From an uncultured Lachnospiraceae bacterium (GTDB taxonomy: Bacteria; Bacillota; Clostridia; Lachnospirales; Lachnospiraceae), in contig CALWLA010000007.1 in the NCBI GenBank assembly GCA_944381405.1, forward strand, positions 8,014 to 72,013: 64,000 nt of DNA. Direction: 5' to 3'. Under the pieces are notes generated by a model, which was given only the letters and a program-made list of their open reading frames with translations, was not told where the DNA came from and did no database searches. Positions within the stretch are counted from its first letter, which is position 1. Every line of letters begins with the position of its first letter. Below are positions 3,335-64,000 of the stretch, piece by piece. The position numbers were made by a program, and so were the translations under genes.

Positions 3335-3811
3335 ATGGATACGGAAAAGGACCAAAAACAAAAGGGAGCCGGAAAAAGGCTCTTGGGCAGGATCTTGAAT
3401 TATGAAACGATCTCATATCTGGTGATCGGGGTGCTGACCACCCTGGTGGACTACCTGGTATTTGCCCTGGTGAACGAGGGCCTGCAGGCCGGGGGATTTT
3501 TCTCGGAGACGGCGGCGGTCATGATCGCTACCGTGGTCTCCTGGCTGGCGGCAGTCATATTTGCCTATATCACCAACAAGCTGATCGTCTTCCGGAATTT
3601 CTGCATGAAGCCCTCCTATCTGGCAAAGGAAGCCTCCGGCTTTTTTGCCGCAAGGGTCATGAGCGGGGTGATCACCCTGGCGCTCATGTGGCTCATGACG
3701 GATCTGGGCAGCATCAACGAATATATCGCAAAGATCATCACCTCTGTGTTCAACATGGTATTCAACTATGTAGCCAGCAAGCTCTGGATCTTTAAGAAAA
3801 AGGACGCATAA
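3335..3811 (+). CDS. GtrA family membrane protein
   Basis: 158 aa with four hydrophobic segments. GtrA-like ends (LVIGVLTTLVDYLVFALV ... NYVASKLWIFKKK). Confidence 0.85.
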   Translation: MDTEKDQKQKGAGKRLLGRILNYETISYLVIGVLTTLVDYLVFALVNEGLQAGGFFSETAAVMIATVVSWLAAVIFAYITNKLIVFRNFCMKPSYLAKEASGFFAARVMSGVITLALMWLMTDLGSINEYIAKIITSVFNMVFNYVASKLWIFKKKDA

Positions 3812-24304: not shown

Positions 24305-25054
24305 TCATTCCTCTCTGGGTACCTTTCCCAGGATCCTTCCTACTACCCGGATCTCCCCTTCCTCAGGGAAGACGTCCGGGAAATCCCCGTTTAAGGAAAG
24401 GAGCCGGTCGGCGCCGGCCTCCTTGACATAGAGGCCGCCGTCCTTGGAAAAAAGACCGATGTCATGGAGGGAAAGGGAATCCGTCTTCGCCACATAGAGC
24501 AGGTCTCCATCCTGGAACATGGGCTCCATACTGCTGCCGGAAACGCCCACGATGAAATCCGCACCCCGGCGTGCAGGGGCAGGGACGGTTTCCAGAGGCA
24601 TGTCCGCGGAATAGACGCCGGTTCCGGCGCTGGCTGCGTACTGCAGGAAGGGATAGAGACGGATTGGTTCCTCTGGAGGCAGGGAAGGGGCGGCAGGGGT
24701 TTGGGACAGGGTCTCCGGAGCCCGCTCCGGCAGGGCCATGAGCTGCCGGTCCATCAGGTAGGAAAGGGTCTCCCTGTCATAGGAAGAGAGACGGCGCAGC
24801 TTCTCGAGAAAGCGCAGCTCCTCCTGGGTGAATACCGGATTTTTCTGAGGCATCCCCTCCACATCCTGGAAGAGAAAGTTGGCGTCCACCTGCAGGGCCG
24901 GGATCAGCCTGCATAAAACGGCCTCCTTGGGGGTATGAAGCCCGTTTTCATAGTTTGCCACGGCTCCCTTGGATACGCCCAAAAGTCCCGCAAGCTCTTC
25001 CTGCGTATAGTGGCAGGCAAGTCTGGCCTCCCGAATTCTGCTGCCGATTCCCAT
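24305..25054 (-). CDS. XRE-family HTH repressor with LexA-like S24 peptidase domain
   Basis: N-terminal HTH_XRE (IREARLACHYTQEELAGLLGVSKGAVANYENG), Pro-rich linker, candidate Ala-Gly cleavage site (AASAGTG), catalytic Ser in GSSMEP and Lys in LYVKE. The only minus-strand CDS in the window. Confidence 0.88.
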   Translation of the reverse strand: MGIGSRIREARLACHYTQEELAGLLGVSKGAVANYENGLHTPKEAVLCRLIPALQVDANFLFQDVEGMPQKNPVFTQEELRFLEKLRRLSSYDRETLSYLMDRQLMALPERAPETLSQTPAAPSLPPEEPIRLYPFLQYAASAGTGVYSADMPLETVPAPARRGADFIVGVSGSSMEPMFQDGDLLYVAKTDSLSLHDIGLFSKDGGLYVKEAGADRLLSLNGDFPDVFPEEGEIRVVGRILGKVPREE

Positions 25055-27007: not shown

Positions 27008-28639
27008 ATGGCAATGTCGTCAGAGGAACGCAGGCGAAGAGTACGGAAGGCGGTGGAGGCCCGGAGAAAAAGCGATCCATCAGGCCAGAGAACCGGTCAG
27101 GCTGCATACAGCGGTACGGACAGTACCGGCAGCAGGGACCGTGCCAATGGCGCAGACCGTATCAGCCGCGTAAGCCAAACCAACCGCAGCAGTCAGCGGC
27201 GCAGACGGCAGAGAAAAAAGAGGAATCAGGCGATCATACGGCTGGTTCTTCTTGTGATTCTGGCAGCCCTCATCCTTGTTTTGGCAGTCCTTGGCATCCG
27301 TGCAGCGGTGGGCTGGCTGAAAAACAGCCTCCCGGGAGAGCAGCAGGAGACGACAGCAGCCGTGTCTGGGGAAAGCCAGGAGGAGACGACAGCGGAGCCC
27401 ACGGTTTCCGCTCTTGAAACAACGCTTGCAGAGGCAGAGCTCATGGCGGCCATGTACGACTACGACGGAGCCATCGCCCTGCTTTCTGAGACAGCCGAGA
27501 CGGCGGACAGCCCCGAGGCCCAGGCGGCCATTGCGGAATATGAACAGATCAAGACCACTCTGGTGAAACAGGATATTTCCAAGATCACCCATGTGTTCTT
27601 CCATATCCTGACGGTGGACTCCGAAAACGCCTTTGACGTCAGCAAATGGGGCAAACAGGCAGAGGGCTACAACAGCCTTATGACTACCATACCGGAATTC
27701 GAGCGCATGCTGGATATCTTCTATGAGGAAGGCTATGTGCTGGTGGGACTTCATGACATGGCAGAAATGGAGACCCAGCCGGACGGTACCGTAAAGATGG
27801 TGGGAAAGGACATCATGCTGCCGCCGGGCAAGAAGGCCATGGTCATGTCCGAGGATGACGTCTGCTACTACGAATATATGGAGGGGGCAGGCTTTGCGGA
27901 CCGGATGATCGTGGGAGAGGACGGCAGACCCACCTGCGTTTATGTGGACGAAAACGGAACGGAGCATGTGGGCGCCTACGACCTGGTACCCATCCTGGAT
28001 CAGTTCATCGACGAGCATCCGGATTTTTCCTATCAGGGAGCCAAGGCCATCATCGCCTTTACAGGCTATAACGGCATCCTGGGATACCGCACGGATGAAA
28101 CCTACGACCCTTCCTCCGATATGTACGATCCGGAAAAAACAGCCAACCCCAACATCGAGGCGGACAGAGAGGCAGCCAGACAGGTGGTGGAGGCTCTGCG
28201 CCAGGATGGATACGAGCTGGCCTCCCACAGCTGGGGCCACCGGGATATGGGCGCCATCAGCCTGGAGCATCTGAAGACGGATACGGACCGTTGGGACAGA
28301 AACGTCAACCAGGAGCTTCTGGGGGGCACCTGCGATATCATCATCTACCCCAAGGGCGCAGATGTGGGAGACTGGAGGGAGAGCTCCTATTCCCACGAAA
28401 CCAACGCGAAATTCGATTATCTGTGGAACAAGGGCTTCCGCTATTTCTGTAATGTGGATGCCTCCACCCCTGCATGGGTGCAGAAGGGCTCAGATTTCCT
28501 GCGGCAGGGAAGACGACCTCTGGACGGCTATAATCTCTGGAACGATATCGCAAACGGAAAGAACCGTCTGTCGGATCTCTTTACGGACGTGTCCGCAGTC
28601 TTTGACAGCAGCCGTCCCACTCCTGTGCTTCCTTACTAA
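27008..28639 (+). CDS. membrane-anchored polysaccharide deacetylase family protein
   Basis: Basic cytoplasmic N-terminus, single TM segment, extracellular domain with the deacetylase-like His motif (ELASHSWGHRDM). Confidence 0.75.
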   Translation: MAMSSEERRRRVRKAVEARRKSDPSGQRTGQAAYSGTDSTGSRDRANGADRISRVSQTNRSSQRRRRQRKKRNQAIIRLVLLVILAALILVLAVLGIRAAVGWLKNSLPGEQQETTAAVSGESQEETTAEPTVSALETTLAEAELMAAMYDYDGAIALLSETAETADSPEAQAAIAEYEQIKTTLVKQDISKITHVFFHILTVDSENAFDVSKWGKQAEGYNSLMTTIPEFERMLDIFYEEGYVLVGLHDMAEMETQPDGTVKMVGKDIMLPPGKKAMVMSEDDVCYYEYMEGAGFADRMIVGEDGRPTCVYVDENGTEHVGAYDLVPILDQFIDEHPDFSYQGAKAIIAFTGYNGILGYRTDETYDPSSDMYDPEKTANPNIEADREAARQVVEALRQDGYELASHSWGHRDMGAISLEHLKTDTDRWDRNVNQELLGGTCDIIIYPKGADVGDWRESSYSHETNAKFDYLWNKGFRYFCNVDASTPAWVQKGSDFLRQGRRPLDGYNLWNDIANGKNRLSDLFTDVSAVFDSSRPTPVLPY

Positions 28640-29284: not shown

Positions 29285-29357
29285 GGGCGGGCCTCCCGCT
29301 CCTATAAACCGGTTGACAAATCCGGGAAACTTTTTATAATACAGTTGTAAATCAAAT

Positions 29358-29520
29358 ATGGCTAGGGGCGCTTATTGCTGAGATGGAAGCGGAAGCTTTC
29401 TGTCCCTCATGACCTGACCAGGATAATGCCTGCGTAGGGAAGCACAGTTACGAAAAACGCCGGAGGAGGACTCCGGGGAGTTTCGTGCATTTTCAGCAGC
29501 CCCTCCTAAAGAACAGGAGG
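29358..29520 (+). promoter_or_regulatory. TPP (THI-box) riboswitch with SD-sequestering expression platform
   Basis: AGGGGCGC...CUGAGA...CCCUCAUGACCUGACCAGGAUAAUGCCUGCGUAGGGAAGC matches the conserved THI-box core. Downstream CCCCUCCU (29500-29507) can pair with the AGGAGG SD (29515-29520) of thiT. Confidence 0.9.
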
Positions 29521-31397: not shown

Positions 31398-31898
31398 ATG
31401 ACCAGACATGAACTGAGAGAACAGGCGTTCCGGATGCTTTTCGGGGTGGAATTCCACACGGAGGACCGGAGGGAGGCCCTGGAAAATTATATGGATGTCA
31501 CCTTTGACGGCAAAATGACTGAGGCTGAACGGCAGGAGGTCATCGAAAAGGTGCTGGACATCGACGGGAAAAAACCGGAGCTGGACGCCCGCATCGACAG
31601 CGTGGCGGAGGGCTGGAAGGTCAGCCGCATGGGAAAGGCGGAGCTCAACATCCTGCGTCTGGCTCTCTACGAAATGCAGTATGACGACAGCGTACCGGTA
31701 AAGGTAGCCATCAACGAGGCGGTGGAGCTGGCCAAGGAATACGGAAGCGGCGACGCCCACGCCTTTGTAAACGGCATTCTGGCAAAACTCATCGACAGGG
31801 ACCTTCCCGAAGCGGAGGGGGAAAAGGCAGCCGCCCCGGAAGCGGCAGCGCCCCGGCAGGAGGAAGCGCCAAAGGACGATGAAGCAGGTTCCTTGTAA
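31398..31898 (+). CDS. nusB: transcription antitermination factor NusB
   Basis: [14 protein letters not shown] start and [10 protein letters not shown] / FVNGILAK motifs. Extra acidic C-terminal tail. Confidence 0.92.
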
Positions 31899-38008: not shown

Positions 38009-38464
38009 ATGCCAATGAAAGTAGGCAGACAGGCAAAAATCATAGAGCTGATCGGAAGATATGACGTGGAGACCCAGGAGGAGCTCTGCGATCTTCTGAA
38101 TCAGGAGGGATATGACGTGACCCAGGCCACCGTATCCAGGGATATCCGGGAGCTCAGGCTGACAAAGGTAAATCACAACGGAAAGCAGAGCTACAAGGCC
38201 CTGCCGGGAAATGTGGACCTTTCCAGAAAATATCTGAACATCCTGAAGGACGGCTATGTTTCCATGGACATGGCCCAGAACCTGCTGGTGGTAAAGACCG
38301 TGTCAGGCATGGCCATGGCTGTGGCGGCGGCCATCGATTCCCTGCAGTTCCGGGAGATCGTGGGCTGCATCGCCGGAGACGATACCATCATGCTGGCCAT
38401 CCGCAGCGTGGATGACTGCCTTGAGGTGATGAAACAGCTGAGAGGGATCCTGGAGGAAAAATAA
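38009..38464 (+). CDS. argR: arginine repressor
   Basis: Winged-helix N-terminus (RQAKIIELIGRYDVETQEEL...TQATVSRDIREL) and C-terminal GCIAGDDTI arginine-binding motif. Confidence 0.92.
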   Translation: MPMKVGRQAKIIELIGRYDVETQEELCDLLNQEGYDVTQATVSRDIRELRLTKVNHNGKQSYKALPGNVDLSRKYLNILKDGYVSMDMAQNLLVVKTVSGMAMAVAAAIDSLQFREIVGCIAGDDTIMLAIRSVDDCLEVMKQLRGILEEK

Positions 38465-49922: not shown

Positions 49923-51275
49923 ATGAATCAGCAGTCATTGATCAGAGGGAACATCACAGGTTCCCTCCTGCTGTTTGCCCTGCCCATGATGGCGGGGAAT
50001 CTTCTGCAGCAGTTTTACAATATCACGGATACCTTTATCGTGGGCCGGTTCCTGGGGACAGAGGCGTTGGCGGCAGTGGGCTCAGCCTATACCCTGATGA
50101 CCTTTCTGACCTCCATCCTGATCGGCCTTTCCATGGGAAACGGGGTATTCGTATCCATCTGTTTCGGAAAAGAGGAGAGGAGAAGGCTTCGGACAGGCGT
50201 GTTCCTCTCCTTTCTTCTGATCTTCGGAATCACGGCGGTGATGAACATCGCCGTATTTCTGCTGCTGGAACCCATCCTTTTGTTCATGAACATCCCGGCG
50301 GAGGTGCAGCCTCTCATGCGGGAATATCTTGCAGTGATCTTTCTGGGGCTCTTCGGGGTATTCCTTTATAATTACTTTACCTGCCTGCTGCGGGCCATCG
50401 GCAATTCCGCGGTGCCCCTCTGGTTCCTGCTTCTGTCCACGGTGGTAAATATCCTACTGGATCTGGTGTTTGTGGTGCCCCTTCAGATGGGGGTGGCAGG
50501 CGCTGCCTGGGCCACCATCATCGCCCAGTATCTTTCCGGCCTAGGGGTCATGGCCTATACCCTGGTGAAATGCCCGGAATTCCGGGTGCAGCGCCGGGAA
50601 ATGCGCTGGGACCAGGGAATCCTTTCGGAGATCGCAGGCCTTTCCGTGCTGACCTGCCTGCAGCAGTCAGTGATGAACTTCGGCATCCTCATGGTGCAGG
50701 GACTGGTGAACAGCTTCGGCACCACCGTCATGGCGGCCTTTGCGGCAGCGGTGAAGATCGACTCCTTTGCCTACATGCCGGTGCAGGATTTCGGCAATGC
50801 CTTTTCTACCTTTGCGGCTCAGAACTTCGGCGCAGGGAAGCCGGAACGGATCAGGGAAGGGATCCGGAAGGCGCTTTTGTGCATTACGGTGTTCTGCCTG
50901 ACGGTCTCCGCCCTGGTGTTCCTGTTTGCAGGCCAGCTGATGCTGATCTTCGTTAAGCCGGAGGAAACGGCGGTGATCGCCGAAGGGGTCCGCTATCTGC
51001 GGGTGGAAGGCGCTTTCTATATCGGCATCGGGATCCTGTTTCTGCTTTACGGTTTTTACCGGGCGGTGAAAAAGCCGGGCATGTCTCTGGTGCTGACGGT
51101 GATCTCCCTGGGGACCCGGGTGCTGCTGGCCTATGCCACCGCAGGGGCTGTGGGCGTGACGGGGATCTGGGCGGCCATTCCCATCGGCTGGTTCCTGGCA
51201 GACCTGACAGGATATCTCTACTACCGCCGTCAAAAGAACTTGTTATTTTCAGGATCCTATGATAAAATTTCTTAG
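49923..51275 (+). CDS. MATE family efflux transporter
   Basis: 12-TM protein. N-terminus LLLFALPMMAGNLLQQFYNITDTFIVGRFLG is typical of MATE/NorM-like exporters. Confidence 0.9.
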   Translation: MNQQSLIRGNITGSLLLFALPMMAGNLLQQFYNITDTFIVGRFLGTEALAAVGSAYTLMTFLTSILIGLSMGNGVFVSICFGKEERRRLRTGVFLSFLLIFGITAVMNIAVFLLLEPILLFMNIPAEVQPLMREYLAVIFLGLFGVFLYNYFTCLLRAIGNSAVPLWFLLLSTVVNILLDLVFVVPLQMGVAGAAWATIIAQYLSGLGVMAYTLVKCPEFRVQRREMRWDQGILSEIAGLSVLTCLQQSVMNFGILMVQGLVNSFGTTVMAAFAAAVKIDSFAYMPVQDFGNAFSTFAAQNFGAGKPERIREGIRKALLCITVFCLTVSALVFLFAGQLMLIFVKPEETAVIAEGVRYLRVEGAFYIGIGILFLLYGFYRAVKKPGMSLVLTVISLGTRVLLAYATAGAVGVTGIWAAIPIGWFLADLTGYLYYRRQKNLLFSGSYDKIS

Positions 51276-54365: not shown

Positions 54366-54785
54366 ATGAATATAGACGGCGTAACCACGGGAATCGTGCT
54401 GGATCATATACAGGCCGGAAAATCCATGGAGATCTATGAATACCTGGGGCTCGACAAGCTCCAGAGCTGCGTGGCAGTCATCCAGAACGTGCGCAGCGCG
54501 AAGTATGGGAAGAAGGATATCATCAAGATCGACGAGCTCATCGATCTGAATCTGGATGTGCTGGGGTATTTCGATCCCAACATCACGGTGAATTATATCA
54601 AGGACGGAAAGCTTCTGGAAAAGAAGCATCTGGCTCTGCCGGATCGCCTGACGGATGTGCTGCACTGCAAAAACCCGCGGTGTATCACCAGCTGCGAGCA
54701 GGAGATCCCTCATGTATTTGAACTGGTGGATCGGGAGAAGAAGATCTACCGGTGCATCTACTGCGATACCCAGGTGCGGGTATGA
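54366..54785 (+). CDS. pyrI: aspartate carbamoyltransferase regulatory subunit
   Basis: ATG 54366 after GGAGG. GIVLDHI allosteric domain and zinc domain CKNPRCIT...CIYCD. Confidence 0.9.
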   Translation: MNIDGVTTGIVLDHIQAGKSMEIYEYLGLDKLQSCVAVIQNVRSAKYGKKDIIKIDELIDLNLDVLGYFDPNITVNYIKDGKLLEKKHLALPDRLTDVLHCKNPRCITSCEQEIPHVFELVDREKKIYRCIYCDTQVRV

Positions 54786-54858
54786 TCTGCAAAAGGCGAT
54801 TCGCAGCATAGAAAAAACAGCAGCAACTATATGGTATTACAGAATTGAAAATCGCGAA

Positions 54859-54890
54859 GGAGCATGGCCGAGGGGCTGTGCTCTTTTTTT
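54859..54890 (+). terminator. rho-independent terminator after pyrI
   Basis: GGAGCATGGCC-GAGG-GGCTGTGCTC stem (two G-U pairs) followed by TTTTTTT. Marks the GC-rich/AT-rich boundary. Confidence 0.75.
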
Positions 54891-55129
54891 GCGGCGATTT
54901 TGAAATTGAATGTCATTCCAAAAAGTTCCTGATTTTCGAAAGTTTTTGGATCACATTCCCAAAAGTGTTGAAAAAACGGGCGTTTTTGGATTCGGATTGT
55001 CCCATGCTTTTTATTTGTATGCCCGTGATATAGACGCAGGATGGCGGAAATGCGGGATGAAAGACAAGGGAGAGAGCATCTCCCTTTTTTTATTGCAAAA
55101 AATAGGAGCAGGGTGGGTGAAAACTAGCG

Positions 55130-55160
55130 AACTCCAAATAATGAACAATTATTTGGAGTT
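55130..55160. repeat. perfect 13-bp inverted repeat (hairpin or operator)
   Basis: AACTCCAAATAAT-GAACA-ATTATTTGGAGTT. The arms are exact reverse complements. Confidence 0.9.
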
Positions 55161-55499
55161 GGGGAGTGGGCTGACGGCAAAGGAAAAGGCGAGGCGTAAG
55201 GGTATGTATATGTACAGGGGGGGGATGGATATGCGGATGCAGGTGAGGAAGCGGATATGGGTGATTGAAGGGCGAGACTGTGGGAGATAAGTGAAAATGG
55301 ACATTCCAGAAGCTGCGAGGACAGTGATGGGATGTTTATTTTTAGATTGAAGGAAATGCAAAAAACGAAATGATTCTGTAAGACAATGGCTAGCCTGAAT
55401 TTTTAGTGGCATGAGAATGGGCTATGATGGCAGTTTTCTACATCAAAATTAGCTGAAAAAGGTGTTTTTGCGTAAAAGCGTTTGCATAGTGATTTCTTC

Positions 55500-55646
55500 A
55501 TTATAAAGCGAAAGTCGGAGTGATCAGGCGGTGGGGCTATCTATTATAAAGCGAAAGTGGGGAGTCTGGTCGGGCTTGAGAAACATGAAATTTTTCATTT
55601 TGGATAGATGGACGCAAACAGTGATGAGGTCATTATAAAGCGAAGG
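55500..55646 (+). repeat. three direct copies of ATTATAAAGCGAA(A/G)G
   Basis: Copies at 55500-55515, 55543-55558 and 55632-55646 (third has one mismatch). Each is followed within ~30 nt by a GGCGGT/GGTCGG element. Confidence 0.85.
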
Positions 55647-55803
55647 ATACGATACGTTGCTGGCGGTTTGGATTATGTCCACACCGCTGAAAGGCTGATA
55701 AATCAAGGACTTTTAAGAAATGTTCAGTACATATCGACAGGGCTGTCCAAATGATTTTAGTTGCTAGAGAAATGATATTTACCGATTGCTATGCGGAAAC
55801 CAT

Positions 55804-55894
55804 GTCTACCCAAATGGAATTATTGAAGGAAATAGAGGGCAATAAAGTATTCAACATTTGAGGTGTCTGCCCTAAATGGAATAGTTGATGAAAA
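55804..55894 (+). repeat. two ~29-nt imperfect direct repeats
   Basis: GTCTACCC-AAATGGAATTATTGAAGGAAA (55804-55832) and GTCTGCCCTAAATGGAATAGTTGATGAAAA (55865-55894), period 61 nt. Confidence 0.8.
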
Positions 55895-56020
55895 CAGACT
55901 ATGAAAGACTAGAAATGAACATTTCTGGTATTAATTTTATAAAATTTGGAAACTGGATTTAAGGGTACAGATGTACAGAGATTTGTTTGTTTCATTATAT
56001 AAATTGACTGAAAGAAAGGC

Positions 56021-56069
56021 TACTGTGGAAATCATGAAGAGGGGAATAAAGAAATGATTATCCACAGTA
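56021..56069. repeat. 15/16-nt inverted repeat just upstream of ugd
   Basis: TACTGTGGAAATCAT (56021-56035) and ATGATTATCCACAGTA (56054-56069). One-nt bulge, 18-nt loop, ends 55 nt before ATG 56125. Confidence 0.85.
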
Positions 56070-56124
56070 ATTTCGATCATAGAAAATATTCCGGATTTGC
56101 CGGATAGAAAGAGGAAAGGTTGTT

Positions 56125-57375
56125 ATGGATAAAAAGTATACGATTACTGTAGCTGGAACCGGATATGTGGGATTGTCGATTGCCACACTGCTGTCTCAGC
56201 ATCATAAGGTTTATGCTGTAGATATCGTTCCGGCAAAGGTTGATATGGTGAACCAGCGTAAATCACCGATTCAGGATGAATATATCGAAAAATATCTGGC
56301 AGAGAAGGACTTGGATTTGACCGCAACGCTTGACGCAGAGATGGCGTATAGAGCTGCGGATTTTGTTGTAATCGCGGCGCCTACAAACTACGACTCAAGT
56401 ACACAGCACTTTGACACGAGTGCAGTTGAAAACGTGATTGAACTGGTTATGAAATATAACCCGGAAGCAATCATGGTCATCAAATCGACCATTCCGGTTG
56501 GATATACGAAAAGTATCCGGGAGAAAACCGGAAGCAAGAATATCCTATTTAGCCCTGAGTTTTTAAGAGAGTCAAAAGCATTATATGACAATTTATATCC
56601 GTCAAGGATCATCGTGGGCACTGATATGGAGGACGAACGACTGGTCAATGCTGCACATACATTCGCTGAACTCTTGCAGGAGGGTGCTATTAAGGAGAAT
56701 ATCGACACGCTGTTTATGGGTTTCACCGAGGCTGAGGCTGTGAAACTGTTTGCTAATACCTATCTGGCACTTCGCGTGGCTTATTTCAACGAGCTTGATA
56801 CTTATGCGGAAATGAAGGGGCTTAATACCCAGCAGATCATTAAAGGTGTCTGCCTGGATCCGCGTATCGGAGATTTCTACAACAATCCGAGCTTTGGCTA
56901 TGGTGGATATTGTCTGCCAAAGGATACTAAACAGTTGCTGGCAAACTATCAGGATGTTCCAGAGAACTTGATTGAAGCAATCGTAGAGAGCAATAGGACG
57001 AGGAAGGATTTTATAGCAGATCGTGTACTGAAACTGGCCGGATATTATGACTATTACAATCGTGGCGACTATAGTGCTGACGAGGAAAAGAAATGCGTCA
57101 TTGGCGTTTATCGGCTGACCATGAAGAGCAATTCTGATAACTTCCGTCAGAGCAGTATCCAGGGTGTTATGAAGAGAATCAAGGCAAAGGGAGCTACAGT
57201 AATTATTTACGAACCAACTCTGGAAGATGGAAGTACTTTCTTCGGATCTGTAGTTGTAAATGATTTGGAAAAGTTCAAGGAGATGTCACAGGCCATTATC
57301 GCTAATCGGTATGACAAGTGCCTGAATGATGTGAAAGAGAAAGTTTATACAAGGGATATTTTCCAGAGGGATTGA
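56125..57375 (+). CDS. ugd: UDP-glucose 6-dehydrogenase
   Basis: Rossmann [10 protein letters not shown] and catalytic Cys motif [12 protein letters not shown]-rich codon usage. GAGGAAAGG RBS. Confidence 0.92.
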
Positions 57376-57385
57376 GGAGATAGCA

Positions 57386-59086
57386 ATGAATTACAAAGAT
57401 AGATATGAACAATGGCTAAATGATGATTTTTTTGATGAGACGACTCGAAAAGAGTTAGCCGCCTTAACAGACGATAAAGAGATTGAGGATTGTTTTTATC
57501 GCGATCTTGAGTTTGGTACAGGTGGTTTACGTGGCATCATGGGAGCCGGTACCAATCGAATGAATCAATACACAGTCGGGAAAGCAACGGCTGGACTTGG
57601 AAAGTATCTGCTTGATACTTATGGAGCAGAAGCCTGCAGAACTCGAGGCGTAGTTATTAGTTATGATACCCGGAATAACAGTAAATATTTTTCACAGACG
57701 ACAGCTAATATATTGAGTGGTATGGGAATCCGTGTTTATCTTCATTCCAACGCAAGACCAACACCACAGCTATCTTTTTCTGTGAAGTTCTTCCATGCAC
57801 TTGCCGGCGTAGTCATTACTGCCAGCCATAATCCAAAGAAATATAACGGTTACAAAGTATATGACGAATTTGGCTGCCAGCTTGTCCCCTGGCAGGCAAA
57901 GCAAGTGATCAGTTATGTGGATGCGATTACAGATTACCACAGCATTAACTATACAGGGAATGACAGCCTTATTTCTATGGTTGATGTGACGGATAACTTT
58001 GTCATGGCTGTCATGAAACAAAGTCGATATGAAGATCAACAGGCAAAGGAGGATTTAAAAGTTATATATACCCCATTACACGGGACAGGAAATATCCCTG
58101 TTCAGAAAGCGCTTCATTTAGGTGGTTTTACTCAAATTGAGCCAGTGGTAGAGCAAGTTGTCCCTGACGGGAACTTCCCCACTGTGGTCTCTCCTAACCC
58201 TGAAGACAAGAGAGCTTTGGAATTGGGAATTGTACAGGCAAAACGTATTGATGCGGACATCGTGTTGGGGACAGACCCGGATTGCGACCGTGTAGGAATT
58301 GCAGTTAGAAACTCAACTGGTGATTATCAATTAATGACCGGCAATCAGGTCGGCGCTTTGTTGATGAGATTCATCTTGACCCATACAGATTTGACTCAAT
58401 ATTCTCGTCCGGCAGTTGTGAAAACAGTCGTTACTTCAGAGCTTGGAGCGGATATTGCCAGAAAACATGGTATTACTGTGTTCTCCACTTTGACTGGTTT
58501 TAAATTCATCGGGGAAAAGATCACGCAGTTTGAGCGGGATAAAGCGGAAGGCAGTGCTGACCGGAATTTTGATTTCCTGTTCGGCTATGAAGAATCTTAT
58601 GGGTATTTAGCTGGAACACATGCCCGTGATAAAGATGCGGTTGTCAGCTCCCTGTTGATCTGTGAGATGGCTGCCGAAGCAAAGGCAAATGGAAAGACTC
58701 TTCTTGATGAAATGGATGAGATCTATGCGGAGTATGGTTACTACCGCGATGCTCTGGATAGTTTCACATTGAAGGGAAAGGACGGATTAGAAAAGATAAC
58801 GGCTATGATGACTGAATTACGTTCCTCTGATTCTCCATTTGAGGATACAGCTTCCGTTATTGATTACAGCAAACCAGTGGATGCAGAACCTGGATTCGGG
58901 AAACTACCTACGTCCAACGTTTTGAAATATATCTTGGAAGATGGCTCATGGATTGCTGTACGCCCGTCCGGCACGGAGCCCAAAATAAAAATTTATTACA
59001 GCATAAAGGCTGTTGATAAGGAAACTGCAGAGAAGAAATTAATAGATATACAAAATGTGATCCAGAGTAAGCTGGAACTTAACTAA
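57386..59086 (+). CDS. phosphoglucomutase/phosphomannomutase family phospho-sugar mutase
   Basis: Phosphoserine loop [15 protein letters not shown], metal loop GTDPDCDR and sugar loop GYEESYGY. 566 aa, PgcA-like size. Confidence 0.9.
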
Positions 59087-59100
59087 GGGGGCAAGGCGTT

Positions 59101-60420
59101 ATGAATATTATTTTACTTTCCGGGGGAAGCGGCAAGCGTCTGTGGCCTCTTTCCAATGAAGTAAGAAGCAAACAGTTTATCAAGTTGTTTAAAAATGAGA
59201 ATGGCGAATATGAATCCATGGTCCAGAGGGTGTACCGTCAGATCCATGCGGTAGATGATGCTGCCAATATTACGATTGCGACCAGTAAATCCCAAGCAAG
59301 TGCCATTAAAAATCAGTTGGGTGAGAAAGTATCGATCTGTGTGGAACCTTGCAGGCGGGATACATTTCCGGCGATTGTACTTGCTGTTTCTTATCTTCAT
59401 GATGAATTGGGAGTGTCTGAGGATGAGGCGGTAGTTGTCTGCCCGGTAGACCCTTATGTTGATCATACATACTACGAAGCAGTGGAAAAATTACAGGAGT
59501 TAGCAAAAGAAGAAAACGCTAACCTTACACTGATGGGAATTGAACCAACCTATCCTTCTGAGAAGTATGGCTATATCATTCCTGAGTCTGGCGATTCTGT
59601 GAGCAAAGTTAAGGAATTTAAAGAAAAACCAGATCAGGAGACAGCAAAGAAATATCTTACACAGAATGCCCTTTGGAATGCAGGTATTTTCGCATTTAAG
59701 ATCGGTTATTTGCTCAATAAAGCACATAGCATGATCGATTTTGAAGATTACCGTGAGTTATTTAATAAGTATGACACATTGGCTAAGATCAGCTTCGATT
59801 ACGCTGTCGTAGAAAAAGAGCCATCCATCCAGGTATTGCGTTACAAAGGAGACTGGAAAGATGTGGGGACCTGGAATATGATGGCCGAGGTCATGGCAGA
59901 TACAACAAAAGGAAAGGTGATCCTGGATGATGCCTGCGAGAATACCAATGTGGTAAATGAGCTCAATATTCCGATTCTCTGTATGGGATGCAAAGACCTG
60001 ATCGTTGCGGTCAGTGGTGACGGGATCCTGGTTTCTGATAAGGAACGCAGCGGCTATATGAAGCCTTATGTGGAAAAAATCGAAACAGAGGCCATGTATG
60101 CAGAAAAATCCTGGGGAACCTACACTGTTATTGATGTGCAGGTTGGTTCCATGACTGTAAAACTGTCTATGAAACCAGGCGAACATATGAGTTATCACAT
60201 GCACAATTACCGGGAGGAAGTATGGACGGTGGTATCCGGCAAAGGAAAAGCTATTGTTGATGGAATGGAACAGATTCTACGGACTGGCGATGTCATCACG
60301 ATTGCGGCAGGCTGCAAGCATACGGTAGAGGCAATCACCGGGTTGGACATGATTGAAGTTCAAATTGGTGAGGAAATTAGTGTTAGTGATAAAGTGAAGT
60401 TTTCGCTGGGCGAAAGATAG
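59101..60420 (+). CDS. manC: mannose-1-phosphate guanylyltransferase with C-terminal cupin
   Basis: LLSGGSGKRLWPLSNEVRSKQF nucleotidyltransferase motif. C-terminal cupin (GEHMSYHMHNYREEVWTVVSGKG). Confidence 0.88.
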   Translation: MNIILLSGGSGKRLWPLSNEVRSKQFIKLFKNENGEYESMVQRVYRQIHAVDDAANITIATSKSQASAIKNQLGEKVSICVEPCRRDTFPAIVLAVSYLHDELGVSEDEAVVVCPVDPYVDHTYYEAVEKLQELAKEENANLTLMGIEPTYPSEKYGYIIPESGDSVSKVKEFKEKPDQETAKKYLTQNALWNAGIFAFKIGYLLNKAHSMIDFEDYRELFNKYDTLAKISFDYAVVEKEPSIQVLRYKGDWKDVGTWNMMAEVMADTTKGKVILDDACENTNVVNELNIPILCMGCKDLIVAVSGDGILVSDKERSGYMKPYVEKIETEAMYAEKSWGTYTVIDVQVGSMTVKLSMKPGEHMSYHMHNYREEVWTVVSGKGKAIVDGMEQILRTGDVITIAAGCKHTVEAITGLDMIEVQIGEEISVSDKVKFSLGER

Positions 60421-60434
60421 TGGGTGCGGTAGAA

Positions 60435-61400
60435 ATGGAAATATTGAAACTGAAGCCTGCGGGAAAGGATTATCTCTGGGGTGGTACAAGACTCCGTGAT
60501 GAATATGGGAAGAAAATTGATCTGACCCCTTTAGCGGAAACATGGGAGTGTTCTGTTCATCCGGATGGTCCCAGTATTGTAACGAATGGAGAATTTAAAG
60601 GCTGGAAGTTAACAGATGTCTTAAAGCAGCATCCGGAATTTCTTGGCTTAAAGGTCAAAAATGGTGAATTACCTATCTTAGTGAAATTTATAGATGCGAA
60701 ACAGGATCTGTCTGTGCAGGTACATCCGGATGATGAGTATGCCAGAAAGAATGAACATCAAAATGGAAAAACCGAAATGTGGTATGTCATTGATGCCGAT
60801 GAAGGGGCAAATCTGATCTATGGCTTTCAGCACAAAGTTACAGACGATATTTTAAGAAACGCTGTCGAGACAGGAACCCTTGATAAACATCTGCAAAAAG
60901 TGTCTGTCCATAAGGGTGATATCTTCTATGTTCCAGCAGGGACAGTTCATGGTATAGGAGCTGGTATTCTGCTTGCGGAGATTCAGGAAAGCTCCAATGT
61001 AACATACCGTGTCTATGATTATGACAGGGTTGATAAAAATGGAAAAAAACGGGAACTTCATTTTGATAAGGCCGTTCATGTTATGAACATGGATATGGCT
61101 CCAGATGTAAAGCAGATGCCGAGGATAATAAAACATTATCCGGGATGTTCACGAGAACTGCTGTGTCGCTGCAAATACTTTGAAGTTGAAAGAATTCAAG
61201 TCACCAAAGCATTTTCATTTTCTGTTCTTGAAGAATCGTTCCAAGTCATTATGTGCCTGGAAGGAGAGGGACAGATAGAGACAATGGATGAGAACCTAAA
61301 ACCAGTCAGGTTTGTGAAGGGAAGGACATTGCTTCTTCCAGCTGGACTTGGAAGGTGTCTGGTTGTTGGGGATGCTACGATATTGAAGATAAGGTGTTAA
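60435..61400 (+). CDS. manA: mannose-6-phosphate isomerase, class I
   Basis: [46 protein letters not shown] 60420 is an alternative start overlapping the manC stop. Confidence 0.88.
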
Positions 61401-61426
61401 TTAAAATTTTAGGAGGATTAACGATT

Positions 61427-62458
61427 ATGAAAAAGGCATTAATTACTGGAATTACTGGTCAGGATGGTTCCTACTTGGCGGAATTTCTTCTCGAGAAGGG
61501 CTATGAGGTACATGGAATCATACGTCGTGCATCTGTTTCTACAACCGCACGTATAGACCACATTCTAGACAAATTAAATATCCATGAAGGAGACCTGTCA
61601 GATTCTTCCAGCATCATACGCATTGTTCTTCAGGTTAAGCCAGATGAAATTTATAATCTTGCAGCTCAGTCTCATGTACAGGTGTCCTTTGATGCAGCTG
61701 AGTATACAGGAGATGTAGATGCTCTTGGTGTACTTCGAATCCTTGAGGCTGTGCATACCGCTGGCTTGGATAAAACCTGCCGCGTATATCAGGCATCTAC
61801 TTCTGAACTGTACGGAAAGGTTGAGGAAGTTCCGCAGAACGAGAATACACCGTTCCATCCATATTCACCTTACGCAGTAGCAAAGCAGTATGGTTATTGG
61901 ATGATTAAAGAATATAGAGAAGCATATGGCATTTTCGCATGCAACGGTATCCTTTTTAATCATGAATCAGAACGTCGTGGCGAGAATTTTGTAACGCGTA
62001 AGATTACTTTGGCAGCCGGACGTATCGCTTGTGGTCTTCAGGATCATCTTGAGCTTGGTAATCTGGATTCTCTGCGTGACTGGGGATACGCCAAGGATTA
62101 TGTGGAGTGTATGTGGCTGATCTTACAGCAGGATGAGCCAGATGATTATGTAATTGCTACTGGTGTACAGCACACGGTTCGGGAGTTTACAACGCTTGCT
62201 TTTGCTAATAATGGTATCGAGCTCGAGTGGAGAGGTGAAGGTATGGATGAAAAGGGATATGACAAACAGACTGGCAAGATGCTGGTTTGTGTAAATCCCA
62301 AGTGGTATCGTCCCACGGATGTTGTAAATCTTTGGGGAGATCCAACTAAGGCAAGAACTAAGTTGGGCTGGAATCCTCAGAAAACAAGTTATGAGGAGCT
62401 TTGCAGAATCATGGCAGAGCATGACTTACAATTAGCTAAAAAGGAAGCAGGTGTGTAA
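61427..62458 (+). CDS. gmd: GDP-mannose 4,6-dehydratase
   Basis: ATG 61427 after [49 protein letters not shown] and [10 protein letters not shown]. Confidence 0.95.
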
Positions 62459-63373
62459 ATGAAGGCTTTAATCACTGGAAGCAATGGCTTTATTGGCTCA
62501 CATCTTAGTACAGAGTTTGAGAAAAATGGATATGAAGTTATTAAGAGTGATCTTACTGAAGGTGGCGGAAATATTGCCATGGATATAATGAATCCAGCGG
62601 TGATTCAAAGTGTTCTTGAGAAATATAAACCAGATGTTATCATCAACATGGCCGGGCAGGCAAATGTAGGACTCTCGTGGAAGAAGCCACAGCTTACTGT
62701 TCAGCTTAACACGGTTGGATTGATTAATATCTTGGAATCTGTAAAAGCGGTCAACTCTGAGATACGTGTTATTGCTATTGGTTCTTCTGACGAATATGGG
62801 AGTTTAAAAGAAAGCGGTTCCAATGTTACTGAAGATATTCCTGTGAAACCGGTCACACCTTATGCTATTTCTAAACAGGCACAGGAGTTGTTTGCACAGC
62901 TGTACGTCCAATCGTATGGCATGGATATCTGCATGATTCGGCTATTCAATCTTGGTGGGGCAGGTCAATCAAAAGGATATATGATTTCTGATTTTTCTTC
63001 CGGTATTGCTGAAGTTGAGCTTGGAAAAAAAGATGTGATGTCTGTCGGCAACCTTGAGAGTGCCAGAGACTATACACATGTGAAGGATGCCTGTAGAGCT
63101 GTACGGCTTATTGTGGAAAAAGGACATGTTGGAGAGGTATACAATATCTGTTCTGGCACAACTCACACTGTACAGGAAGTCTTAGATAAGTTGATTGCAA
63201 TGGCAAAGACAGAGATTAAGGTTGTACAGGATCCAGCGAGGATGCGCCCGAGTGACACTCCGGTCGTTTGCGGTAATCATGATAAGCTGACTGCACATAC
63301 AGGATGGCAACCGAAATATGGTATTGATGAGATATTGAAAGATGCCCTCACTTATTGGAGAGAGCAGAATTGA
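62459..63373 (+). CDS. rmd: GDP-4-dehydro-6-deoxy-D-mannose reductase-like SDR (Rmd-like)
   Basis: Starts 1 nt after the gmd stop. ALITGSNGFIGSHL, YAISK, VYNICSG and VQDPARMRPSD resemble recalled Rmd sequences rather than Fcl. Exact product (D-rhamnose vs 6-deoxy-D-talose) cannot be decided by eye. Confidence 0.7.
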   Translation: MKALITGSNGFIGSHLSTEFEKNGYEVIKSDLTEGGGNIAMDIMNPAVIQSVLEKYKPDVIINMAGQANVGLSWKKPQLTVQLNTVGLINILESVKAVNSEIRVIAIGSSDEYGSLKESGSNVTEDIPVKPVTPYAISKQAQELFAQLYVQSYGMDICMIRLFNLGGAGQSKGYMISDFSSGIAEVELGKKDVMSVGNLESARDYTHVKDACRAVRLIVEKGHVGEVYNICSGTTHTVQEVLDKLIAMAKTEIKVVQDPARMRPSDTPVVCGNHDKLTAHTGWQPKYGIDEILKDALTYWREQN

Positions 63374-63390
63374 TTTATTAGGAGTGACTA

Positions 63391-64000
63391 TATGAGAATG
63401 AAATTCCTTAATACCCACATTGATAATCTTACAATGAGTGAAGCAATTCAAGAAATAGATAAATTAATCCAAGATGGAAAGCATTCGTATGTAGTTACTC
63501 CTAATCTGGATCATATTGTACTTATAGAAAATGATGAGTTATTTAAAGAAATTTATGACAATGCGGATTTGGTTTTAGCTGATGGGAAACCGTTGTTGTG
63601 GATTGCGAAAAGGCAAGGAACTCCAATTAAAGAAAAAGTATCTGGTTCGGATCTTTTCCCGGAGATGTGTAAGTTGGCAGCAAAGAACGGGTACAAGATT
63701 TATATCCTTGGAGCAGCTGAGGGAGTAGCAGATAAGGCTGCAGAGAACCTTATAGTAAAGTTTAATGGACTTAAAATTGTAGGTACATATTCGCCACCTA
63801 TAGGATTTGAAACGGACAAAACTGAGGTTCAAAAAATTGTTAATAAGATTAACGAATCCAAAGCTGATATTTTGGCCGTTGCATTAGGCTCACCGAAGGG
63901 CGAAAAGTTCATATATAGGATTAGAGAGAAGATATGTGTGGTTTTGTCAATTTCAATCGGGGCCACGATAGATTTTGAGGCAGGGAATTTGAAGCGTGCT
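63391..64000 (+). CDS. WecG/TagA/CpsF family glycosyltransferase (3' end outside the window)
   Basis: Not in the ORF track because no stop lies within the window. My translation from ATG 63391 (after AGGAG) gives MRMKFLNTHIDNLTMSEA...VVTPNLDHIV...ADLVLADGKPLLW...VSGSDLF...YILGAAEG...ILAVALGSPKGEKF, the WecG/TagA pattern. Confidence 0.85.

Follow-up and report, generated by a model that had tools for sequence, protein, structure and literature searches.

Why should more than 1 kb without a recognizable gene separate a pyrimidine operon from a polysaccharide locus? The question was raised by a 64,000-nucleotide (nt) stretch of DNA from an uncultured Lachnospiraceae bacterium (contig CALWLA010000007.1 of assembly GCA_944381405.1), referred to below as the window, in which pyrI (Pfam domains PyrI and PyrI_C) stops at 54785 and the next gene, ugd (three UDPG_MGDP_dh domains), starts at 56125. 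The gap between them is 1339 nt long, or 1234 nt when counted from the end of the T-run of the pyrI terminator at 54890, which agrees with the roughly 1.2 kb given in a first-pass annotation made without database searches. It is the largest gap in the window, in which the median gap is 58 nt according to a crude greedy map of open reading frames (ORFs), an imperfect map in that GC-rich shadow ORFs get picked up. The first-pass annotation had treated the gap as one long leader of the sugar operon. Comparison with related loci showed instead that it consists of three pieces with different histories, one of which was imported with ugd. Part A (54786-55160) is an entrance conserved within the species, part B (55161-55384) is a spacer and a hairpin, and part C (55385-56124), called element X here, was imported with ugd and is exchanged together with it. 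As far as this architecture alone is concerned, we are highly confident that the gap is a three-part mosaic, which together makes up the 5' non-coding region of a polysaccharide locus that is exchanged horizontally, varies between strains, and was inserted after pyrI in a single uncultured species of Clostridia.

A common entrance before alternative gene sets

Exact-protein look-ups with PyrI and two 99%-identical variants retrieved 21 metagenome contigs from the same species (contigs and loci are designated by L numbers below). In blastn searches and alignments these contigs were 88-100% identical after pyrI up to about 55105-55170, whichever cassette followed. Beyond this common entrance there were at least seven different gene sets: the ugd set of the window, an Alg14/GT28/pyruvyl-transferase set, a dNK/FdtA set, an epimerase-first set, a PGM-first set, a GT4/radical-SAM set, and the variant found in L007. 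Sibling strains without the block made up of X and ugd had leaders of only 400-670 nt. Many of the contigs ended 300-900 nt past pyrI, as is expected because co-existing strains differ there. Sister species, in which PyrI/pyrI is 85-90% identical, had no polysaccharide locus, a different terminator after pyrI, and no homology beyond the pyrI stop, so the whole region, including the pyrI terminator, is a species-specific island. Among the matches listed in a PyrI profile scan, relatives (Anaerovoracaceae, Ihubacter and others) were at most 75% identical, and the nearest named ones were 72-75% identical.

Analysis of the coding potential of the gap bore out the earlier judgment that its ORFs are not genuine. 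A six-frame Pfam scan gave no match at E ≤ 1, and blastx against 7,324 ORF translations from all related loci found homologous leaders only. The 126-aa ORF at 54910-55290 had a 1-nt indel, and thus a frameshift, as well as non-synonymous changes in sibling strains, and for every ORF of at least 18 aa in X the conservation of the protein was below that of the DNA. Small proteins were ruled out on these grounds. A pseudogene within the gap was ruled out by the six-frame Pfam scan and by blastx against the ORFs of related loci and against ugd, with the exception of the first ~20 nt of X.

The base composition of the gap, a feature absent from the first-pass annotation, was also unusual: its C content of 10-13% was the lowest in the 64 kb and its G>C skew the highest in the window. 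The leaders in all lineages but one had 11-16% C and a G>C skew of 0.24-0.43. The description of the stretch as structure-rich was apt, as several of its hairpins had significant fold z scores, and seven terminator-like sites were observed where 1.0 ± 0.9 were expected. A scan of the window with Rfam 15 at gathering thresholds identified only a thiamine pyrophosphate (TPP) riboswitch, at 29354, and nothing in the gap, where there were only sub-threshold chance matches (E 0.4-8); the same kind of scan of 12 related loci found no match.

The entrance, its terminal palindrome and the spacer

The entrance begins with T1 (54860-54890, + strand), the intrinsic terminator of the pyr operon (GAGCAUGGCC..GGCUGUGCUC + U7), which folded at -21.2 kcal/mol (z -5.2) and was identical in 21 of the 21 same-species contigs. 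A repeat and dyad scan identified two tandem 40-nt units downstream of it (54914-54993, + strand), U1 (54914-54953) and U2 (54954-54993), that read CATTCC(C)AAAAG...TTTTTGGAT. Their four arms can pair either 1:2 and 3:4 or 2:3, and a 92-nt stretch at this site was invariant in all strains, including those of a diverged haplotype; the fold z score was just -1.7. The next element, T2 (55061-55093, + strand), is a terminator-like hairpin (AAGGGAGA-GAGCA-UCUCCCUU + U7; -13.4 kcal/mol, z -3.3) whose hairpin and T-run proper occupy 55066-55093, where the first-pass annotation had placed an internal hairpin plus T-run (~55067-55091). Two haplotypes were found over 54975-55080. The stem and U-run of T2 were kept in both of them while the loop differed, and strain L095 was a mosaic between the two, which indicates recombination inside the entrance. 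T2 was also the last element in common with strain L007. Both T1 and T2 (55066-55093) fit the intrinsic-terminator pattern, in which a stem containing G+C precedes a U-run on the sense strand, and the region 54891-55170 folded with a z score of -3.1. Homologs of this 5' part were found neither in 80 pyrI loci of other species nor in 112 ugd/pyrI loci (blastn, nhmmer), and a pattern scan of Joint Genome Institute (JGI) metagenomes for U1-U2 gave no match.

The three CATTCC copies that had been listed previously were all present, with exact matches to CATTCCNRAAR at 54914, 54954 and 55302 and no further copy in the 64 kb, but their number is weak evidence by itself, as 0.97 copies were expected and three were reached in 8 of 100 shuffles. 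By eye, a 12-bp hairpin that opens with CATTCC and ends in U7-AUU was seen in another lineage between rmlC and an X-like leader (L118:3530-3625), followed by a second terminator-like hairpin, and the tail in L118, TTTTTTTATTTCTAAAAAAT, resembled the T2 tail of the window, TTTTTTTATTGCAAAAAAT.

The entrance ends with H4 (55130-55160), a perfect palindrome with 13-bp arms (AACTCCAAATAAT-GAACA-ATTATTTGGAGTT; -20.5 kcal/mol, z -7.9) that is readable as 13-5-13 or as 12-7-12. H4 marks the point where cassettes are swapped. Breakpoints were located to the right of H4, or within its right arm, in L003, L005, L006, L008, L094, L096 and L100, and to the left of it in L012, which has sequence in common with the window only from the left edge of H4 rightwards. 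The first 42 nt of L012 (1-45, compared with the window at 55129) were unrelated to the window and included an inverted CATTCC unit. The contig may represent a different genomic setting of this cassette, or else its sequence may have been joined at the palindrome during assembly.

A 20-nt core of H4, CAAATAATAACAATTATTTG, recurred in three unrelated lineages (L118-123, L138, and L175), upstream of ugd-containing polysaccharide loci. The core was 5 nt before the left end of X in L118-123, and 60 nt past a Bac_transf gene and 300 nt before X in L138. In L175 the H4-like site was within a 505-nt intergenic region, 31-56 nt downstream of a promoter-like site (TTGAAG-17-TATTAT), and the RNA predicted from this region has the H4-like hairpin and then a hairpin with U6, about 55 nt before the first gene. 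A looser H4 pattern matched about six times by chance in the 2.1 Mb of loci retrieved, never with the full 20-nt core, and a scan of viral contigs for the core returned six chance matches only, in coding DNA of contigs with 27-31% GC. L175 also encodes, beside its polysaccharide locus, a 99-aa ORF (L175:129-428, + strand) matching the C-terminal catalytic part of Phage_integrase, 1.3 kb upstream of the H4-like site (L175:1741-1766).

Part B opens with a G-rich, C-poor spacer (55161-55291, + strand; 9% C, 38% G) that varied in both length and sequence between cassette types. A stretch of it (55247-55267) was compared with the GxGxxG codons of ugd, and the likeness was treated as chance, the stretch being absent in L010. 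The spacer is followed by B2 (55292-55347, + strand), a terminator-like hairpin of 17-18 bp (stem-loop at 55292-55344), inside which is the third CATTCC unit and whose 3' side is rich in U (-23.4 kcal/mol, z -7.1); its U-run is partly paired with an upstream A-run. B2 was 40-120 nt before the first gene in L001, L006, L010 and L100. An RNAalifold consensus of six cassette types had 18 pairs, with two compensatory changes and many wobble-compatible one-sided changes, and the lower 15 pairs were never broken. On the other strand several conserved G.U pairs of this hairpin would become A.C mismatches, which assigns the structure to the + strand RNA. The CATTCC of the 5' arm was invariant while its partner strand varied, which suggests sequence-specific recognition in addition to pairing.

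Two other interpretations of this region were tried and rejected. Attenuation of the PyrR type was considered, as B2 in the window reads UCCAGAAG, but the loop was not conserved in other cassettes and the Rfam PyrR model was unmatched. The short leader of L010 was compared with X as a possible miniature version of it, and the similarity past about 55396 was no better than that of shuffles.

Element X and its exchange with ugd

Element X (55385-56124, + strand) is conserved and non-coding, and the exchange unit to which it belongs, consisting of X and ugd, extends from 55385 to about 57290-57362. The left end of the block (55377-55405, boundary at 55385; AATGGCTAGCCTGAATTTTTAG) is derived from ugd codons, and its coding part is ugd itself (56125-57375, + strand), assigned by Pfam to the UDP-glucose 6-dehydrogenase family. 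The ugd protein was 94-100% identical in more than 100 distinct sequences on many contigs, a far wider spread than that of the PyrI of this species. In L107-L114 the sequence 55377/55385-57362 (740 nt plus nearly all of ugd) was 98% identical to the window in unrelated surroundings. These were the head of an operon with a NusG paralog and Bac_transf (L107), a divergent phosphofructokinase gene (L108-L114), and an XRE-type gene (L110), and homology to all of the foreign contexts began at 55377/55385. In L107 identity was ~99% over X and ugd and 47-80% in the following genes, and in L217 it was 63-99% over X and ugd and ~100% from 57285 to 64000. These block-wise profiles indicate that X and ugd are a single exchange unit.

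The block was often in the middle of an operon in other genomes. Diverged alleles of X were found before ugd in L125-132, L133, L217, L135, L137 and L138, and there were at least eight allelic lineages; the right end of X alone was found before ugd in L118-124 and L134. Most other ugd homologs (81-87% identical) had upstream gaps of less than 100 nt and no X. A search of plasmids matched only the coding part of ugd (68-74%), with X unmatched, and in a search of phages the whole gap was unmatched.

The identity of X to its homologs exceeded that of ugd four-fold sites in every pair compared. For L125, identity with the window was 0.83-0.86 in X, as against 0.57 at the four-fold sites and 0.62 at the third positions of ugd. 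The corresponding values for X and for four-fold sites were 0.72 and 0.63 in L133, 0.74 and 0.41 in L135, and about 0.70 and 0.49 in L137. Near-invariant blocks were found at 55486-55513, 55839-55853, 55912-55927, 56022-36 and in the last 100 nt, and near-neutral stretches at 55685-55785 and 55885-55985. This pattern indicates that X is non-coding sequence under purifying selection, changing more slowly than the synonymous sites of ugd. The first-pass annotation had allowed that the stretch might be decayed and unconserved junk, which is contradicted by its conservation in related loci.

The left end of X offers an indication of its origin. Immediately before X, five lineages had a 5' half of ugd that was truncated or decayed and that stopped at residues 159-163. 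In L107, L133, L135 and L137 the decayed half runs straight into X (E 4e-23 to 2e-4), and L137 still reads YDNVYPLKI across the left boundary, so the left end of X, AATGGCTAGCC, is itself derived from ugd. The ugd-derived part comprises the first ~20 nt, plus upstream DNA in other lineages; the rest of X had no match at E < 1 and no similarity to the 3' part of ugd in the six-frame Pfam and blastx searches. These arrangements fit a model in which a [ugd'(1-160)-X-ugd] donor would have been inserted into a resident ugd with the help of homology, and X would have spread in this way.

Duplication within X was also evident. The motif CATTATAAAGCGAA was present in three copies, at 55499, 55542 and 55631, a number reached in 0 of 100 shuffles, and the copies of CATTATAAAGCG stem from a 132-nt internal tandem duplication (55498-55629) that carries this motif. 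There were three copies of the motif in the window, L133, L135 and L217, two in L137, and one in L125. At least four unrelated families of repeats or dyads had been proposed for the gap; the repeats are there, but the CATTCC copies belong to one hairpin family and the CATTATAAAGCG copies to the duplication, so that not all of them are unrelated.

Several minor observations concern ugd and the surroundings of the block in other lineages. Among ugd alleles the 5' third (56185-56485) was more conserved in DNA (0.92-0.99) than 56585-57285 (0.79-0.88), and gene conversion between ugd and the truncated ugd' copies, which cover just the conserved 5' third, is possible. L110 contained an intact 185-aa ORF (L110:1495-2052, + strand) for only the NAD-binding N-terminal half of a ugd homolog, with 78% identity to that of the window (residues 3-159), and between this ORF and the X-ugd block were a small minus-strand ORF and the XRE-type helix-turn-helix gene. 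In L107 a 174-aa NusG-family paralog (L107:967-1491, + strand) was followed by Bac_transf, a decayed ugd fragment, X, and ugd; upstream was a gene for a PRD/Mga-like regulator, and by eye a promoter-like site, TTGACA-18-TAAAAT (L107:694-730), heads that operon.

A number of structures and signals were predicted inside X. The hairpin HP-A (55480-55509, + strand) has 12 pairs, with a G.U to G-C change in L137, and a fold z score of -2.5. Its 3' arm is the first copy of CATTATAAAGCG, of which further copies are at 55542 and 55631, and it coincides with the most conserved block of X (55486-55513). Three degenerate ~63-nt repeats found by the repeat scan, r1-r3 (55741-55900, + strand; TGTCYNCCMAAATGRAWTWRTTG), resemble the left end of X. 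A hairpin in r2, pairing 55811-55820 with 55849-55860, is weakly supported: its 10 pairs showed one-sided wobble changes only, and its single-sequence fold was no better than that of shuffles. A candidate sigma-A promoter (55858-55885, + strand), consisting of TTGAGG, 16 nt, and TGg-AATAGT, has a predicted start near 55892. It was matched by the scan in four lineages of a seven-lineage alignment, and by eye its hexamers were near-invariant in six of the seven. Some 20-35 nt past the predicted start is an invariant palindrome, GAAATGAACATTTCTG (GAAATGAACATTTC; 55912-55927), which is a conserved block in six to seven lineages. It may act as an operator, or it may be the 5' strand of a helix formed over a long range with the region of the Shine-Dalgarno sequence (SD) and AUG (56114-56126), a pairing for which one compensatory pair was observed. 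An 11-nt complementarity between 55716-55726 and 55916-55926 was dropped as chance, as it was not conserved in L125.

The best-supported structured part of X is its right end. P11 (56021-56069, + strand) is a 15-bp hairpin (CUACUGUGGAAAUCAU...AUGAUUAUCCACAGUA; -17.3 kcal/mol, z -5.5), and P12 (56090-56104, + strand), recognized in the alignment, is a 5-bp hairpin, UCCGG-N5-CCGGA, 20 nt before the start codon, in which the pair types included G-C, G.U (L125, L137), and a both-sided change in L138. A conserved single-stranded linker (56070-56089) lies between the two, and P12 is followed by the SD, GAGG (56113-56116), and then the start codon. A covariance model of P11 and P12, designated R1, matched immediately before ugd in nine lineages, one of which, L134, had no part in building it. 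In the model-fitted alignment 94.5% of cells were paired and P11 had both-sided changes in 4 of 15 pairs; over the nine lineages 5 of the 20 pairs in R1 changed on both sides, compared with 1.6 ± 0.9 in shuffles and 0-1 in slid controls. An RNAalifold analysis of the whole of X in five lineages predicted 93 pairs, 11 of them changed on both sides, compared with 5.4 ± 1.5 in column shuffles (0 of 500 reached this number) and 1-8 in slid controls. The covariation over the whole of X may be regarded as suggestive only, as the consensus was derived from the very alignment that was scored.

Proposed function, alternatives and known systems

These results lead us to a combined reading, to which we assign a probability of about 0.5, of attenuation by a hairpin plus terminator at the entrance of the locus together with an imported promoter and 5' untranslated region (UTR) module for ugd. 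The attenuation or antitermination step, taken by itself, is put forward tentatively. Transcription entering the locus would meet conditional termination at T2 and/or B2, and the H4 hairpin and the CATTCC hairpin units would be the recognition elements for a putative read-through factor, which is the same logic as that of LoaP-type leaders and of locus L175. H4 and the entrance may double as a homology anchor for cassette replacement, because they are the sole sequences common to all cassettes. X would give ugd and the nucleotide-sugar genes their own promoter (candidate 55858-55885), a possible operator, and a structured 5' UTR (P11, linker, P12, and SD) that could set mRNA stability or translation. 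Its own promoter and 5' UTR would explain how the block functions after a divergent gene, after a terminator (L118), or within operons. The depletion of C on the sense strand may keep a long untranslated RNA a poor substrate for Rho.

Several observations weigh against this combined reading. The start site, termination, and read-through at the locus are predictions from sequence. No convincing sigma-A promoter was found in 54786-55384 by scan or by eye, and the candidate promoter in X, whose -10 (AATAGT) is weak, amounts to no more than a match to the consensus. The window ORFs that were scanned and the 10 kb downstream contained neither a NusG paralog nor an RNA-binding regulator. The outer stem of H4 had no compensatory changes in L118, L138 and L175, where the AT-rich core alone was conserved, a pattern that would suit an RNA hairpin and a DNA site equally well. 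B2 was missing from the L003, L005, L007 and L008 variants and hence is not universal. The structures were predicted from the few alignments that were also used for scoring, and that of R1 was model-fitted. Finally, the contrast between X and synonymous sites was small for the L133 allele (0.72 vs 0.63).

Other explanations of the gap differ mainly in what they make of the entrance and in what they make of X. In one, the whole gap would be a single long processive-antitermination leader of a known type (RfaH/ops, LoaP, or UpxY), in which a NusG paralog loaded in the leader carries RNA polymerase through the operon. The gap is indeed long and has terminator-like hairpins, and the operon in the L107 context is headed by a PRD/Mga-like regulator and a NusG-family gene of 174 aa; nevertheless, this is quite unlikely. 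The gap contains no ops sequence within one mismatch, no UNCG-tetraloop hairpin on either strand, and no match to EAR (eps-associated RNA) or any other Rfam family, and the parts that make up the leader differ in their history. Its first gene is ugd and not upxY-like, and the LoaP-like NusG paralog that the first-pass annotation had proposed to look for near the locus did not turn up in the ORFs and the 10 kb mentioned above; the statement in the same annotation that no known signature fits cleanly proved correct. Alternatively, H4 could be a DNA site for site-specific recombination (a lox/dif-like core with 12-13-bp inverted arms and a 5-7-bp spacer) at which a tyrosine recombinase swaps the cassettes. 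This is unlikely, even though a perfect palindrome is found exactly at the divergence point, to the left of the breakpoint in many strains and to the right of it in L012, its core is conserved in other lineages without compensatory changes, and in L175 a Phage_integrase fragment precedes the H4-like site by 1.3 kb. Beside the site, no recombinase gene was detected in L118, in L138 or in the window (part of its ORFs scanned), there was no second copy of the site in the visible distal parts of the cassettes, a conserved element of 27-31 bp alone suffices to focus homologous recombination, and in L175 the copy falls within a transcribed leader, with a promoter-like site before it and a terminator-like hairpin after it. 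A small RNA gene between T1 and T2 (about 54900-55093), independent of the polysaccharide locus, would account for a 200-nt, 100%-conserved structured segment that ends in a good hairpin and U7, and for the z score of -3.1 over 54891-55170, but is improbable given that there was no upstream promoter-like site, no Rfam match, and no homolog outside the species. An invertible promoter segment conferring phase variation, another suggestion of the first-pass annotation, can be given hardly any credence. Polysaccharide loci of gut bacteria are often phase-variable and the gap has several inverted repeats, but these are close-spaced hairpins that do not flank a segment of 150-400 bp, and blastn found no minus-strand match, and thus no opposite orientation, for any part of the gap in the ~45 fetched contigs, which are assembled consensus sequences in which a minority orientation could be missed.

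With regard to X, it is conceivable, if doubtful, that it is a large structured cis-acting RNA, either a metabolite- or protein-sensing 5' UTR or an operon-internal platform for mRNA processing, and not a promoter region. The covarying pairs exceeded the controls, the conserved G.U pairs point to the + strand alone, 55915-55925 could pair over a long range with the SD/AUG region, a conserved single-stranded linker is found between two hairpins just before the SD, and X often directly follows a + strand gene without a terminator (L110, L125, L217). On the other hand, just 5-9 lineages were available, much of X was conserved as primary sequence with near-neutral spacers between the blocks, the r2 hairpin was no better than shuffles, and no Rfam family matched; in addition, L108-L114 have a divergent gene upstream, which requires a promoter within X or close to it. 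The opposite extreme would be that X is the decaying debris of an old ugd duplication, hitch-hiking with ugd, and that the 5' part is the 3' UTR of the pyr operon. The ugd codons at the left end of X, the decayed ugd 5' halves upstream of it in five lineages, and the about neutral rate of 55685-55785 and 55885-55985 are all compatible with this. Such an origin is nonetheless very unlikely: X was above ugd four-fold sites in every pair, blocks of 12-19 nt were near-invariant across lineages in which ugd four-fold identity was 0.40-0.63, there was no residual similarity to the 3' part of ugd, and the 5' part had no homology in sister species and so is not an ancestral pyr 3' UTR.

A bolder version of the combined reading, which we consider speculative and rather unlikely, is that H4 and X each represent a class of cis-acting element, as yet undescribed, that serves the polysaccharide loci of Clostridia, with H4 recruiting a putative read-through factor and X being a horizontally spreading structured leader RNA, welded to ugd, that senses a signal. 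H4 would then be a short AT-rich hairpin, functionally analogous to the ops or LoaP hairpin with a different partner, and the 600-740-nt X would sense, for example, a UDP-sugar or a protein via its conserved blocks and the platform formed by P11, the linker, P12, and the SD.

Elements of this general kind, conserved cis elements that head exchangeable polysaccharide loci, are already known, and comparison with them indicates which features of this locus are shared. The JUMPstart/ops element recognized by RfaH is a short conserved non-coding element upstream of enterobacterial polysaccharide operons. Like it, H4 is a short element common to the leaders of otherwise unrelated exchanged polysaccharide clusters, located at the edge of the variable region and delimiting recombination; unlike it, H4 occurs in a different phylum and is a palindrome, whereas ops is an 8-12-nt signal on the non-template strand. 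The ops sequence GGCGGTAGnnTG had no match in the gap at up to one mismatch and a single match in the window, at 27814 (- strand), where 3.05 were expected by chance; GGCGGTGGGGCT, at 55525, is inside the duplicated segment and was not conserved in L125, L133 and L135. Serotype-cassette loci, such as pneumococcal cps between dexB and aliA and the O-antigen genes of E. coli between galF and gnd, likewise combine a conserved flank with a variable biosynthetic cassette that is replaced by recombination, and in the present case metagenome assemblies break at the junction. The left anchor here, however, is a 375-nt non-coding entrance ending in a palindrome and not a gene. EAR (epsC in Rfam), an RNA of Bacillales located between genes of a polysaccharide operon, has been proposed to promote terminator read-through. 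X is often operon-internal too, but it does not match any Rfam model, is 600-740 nt long, and is unrelated in sequence.

The LoaP leaders of Bacillota, in the dfn and mln operons of Bacillus velezensis, contain a hairpin with a UNCG tetraloop, and loaP is encoded beside its target (PMC12691694). As proposed here, read-through is decided in a 5' leader that has a small hairpin and then an intrinsic terminator before a long and costly biosynthetic operon (PMC12691694). In the present locus B2, terminator-like as judged from its pattern and covariation, is 130 nt after H4, while T2 precedes H4. In contrast to the LoaP hairpin, H4 is an AT-rich 13-bp palindrome with a GAACA/AACA loop, and there is no NusG paralog in reach: no UNCG loop closed by at least four pairs was found on either strand of 54786-56124, and no NusG match was found in the window ORFs scanned, small ones included, the upstream neighbours, or the 18 kb downstream. 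In Bacteroides, capsule operons are governed by UpxY/UpxZ and by invertible promoters, with a 5' UTR that contains specificity determinants for transcript elongation (PMC11685472). Both systems have several alternative polysaccharide gene sets, but those described here are alleles of one locus across strains, as opposed to several loci per genome. Genes for upxY or upxZ were not found at the start of the operon, where the first genes are ugd and a phosphoglucomutase-family gene.

What the window offers is at least seven alternative cassettes behind one conserved non-coding entrance in a single species, a 31-nt palindrome at the swap point that recurs in other lineages, and a non-coding element under selection that moves between genomes with ugd. 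Surface polysaccharides shape how hosts, phages, and competitors perceive the Clostridia of the gut and rumen, and to our knowledge the regulation and exchange of polysaccharide loci have hardly been described outside Bacteroides, enterobacteria, and a few Bacilli. The locus is therefore of relevance to the surface glycans of gut Clostridia and to the discovery of RNA motifs. The entrance, H4, and X have no counterpart in Rfam, nor are H4 and X included in current RNA libraries, and all three could be used as sequence tags to find and type such loci in metagenomes.

The remaining observations concern the wider surroundings of the gap. Its upstream neighbours are htpG, a MATE transporter gene, and pyrC-pyrE-pyrB-pyrI. 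According to Pfam, ugd is followed by genes for phosphoglucomutase, mannose-1-phosphate guanylyltransferase, phosphomannose isomerase, GDP-mannose dehydratase, and an epimerase/reductase, and the 18 kb downstream of the gap contain solely sugar-nucleotide, glycosyltransferase, and Wzy genes. About 8 kb past the end of the window, in the same cassette, there is a second gene-free gap of ~500 nt (L218:14616-15119), between GT1 and hexose-dehydratase genes, in which a half-site scan gave no match. Two proteins encoded outside the variable locus may have a role in glycan export or modification: the MATE-family protein just upstream of the pyr genes (49923-51275, + strand), which has weak similarity to Polysacc_synt, and a GtrA-like membrane protein far upstream (3335-3811, + strand). 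Genes for a LexA-like repressor (HTH_3 and Peptidase_S24; 24305-25054, - strand), NusB (31398-31898, + strand), and ArgR (38009-38464, + strand) are ordinary housekeeping context, and the TPP riboswitch (RF00059, 62.7 bits) occupies 29354-29457 on the + strand.

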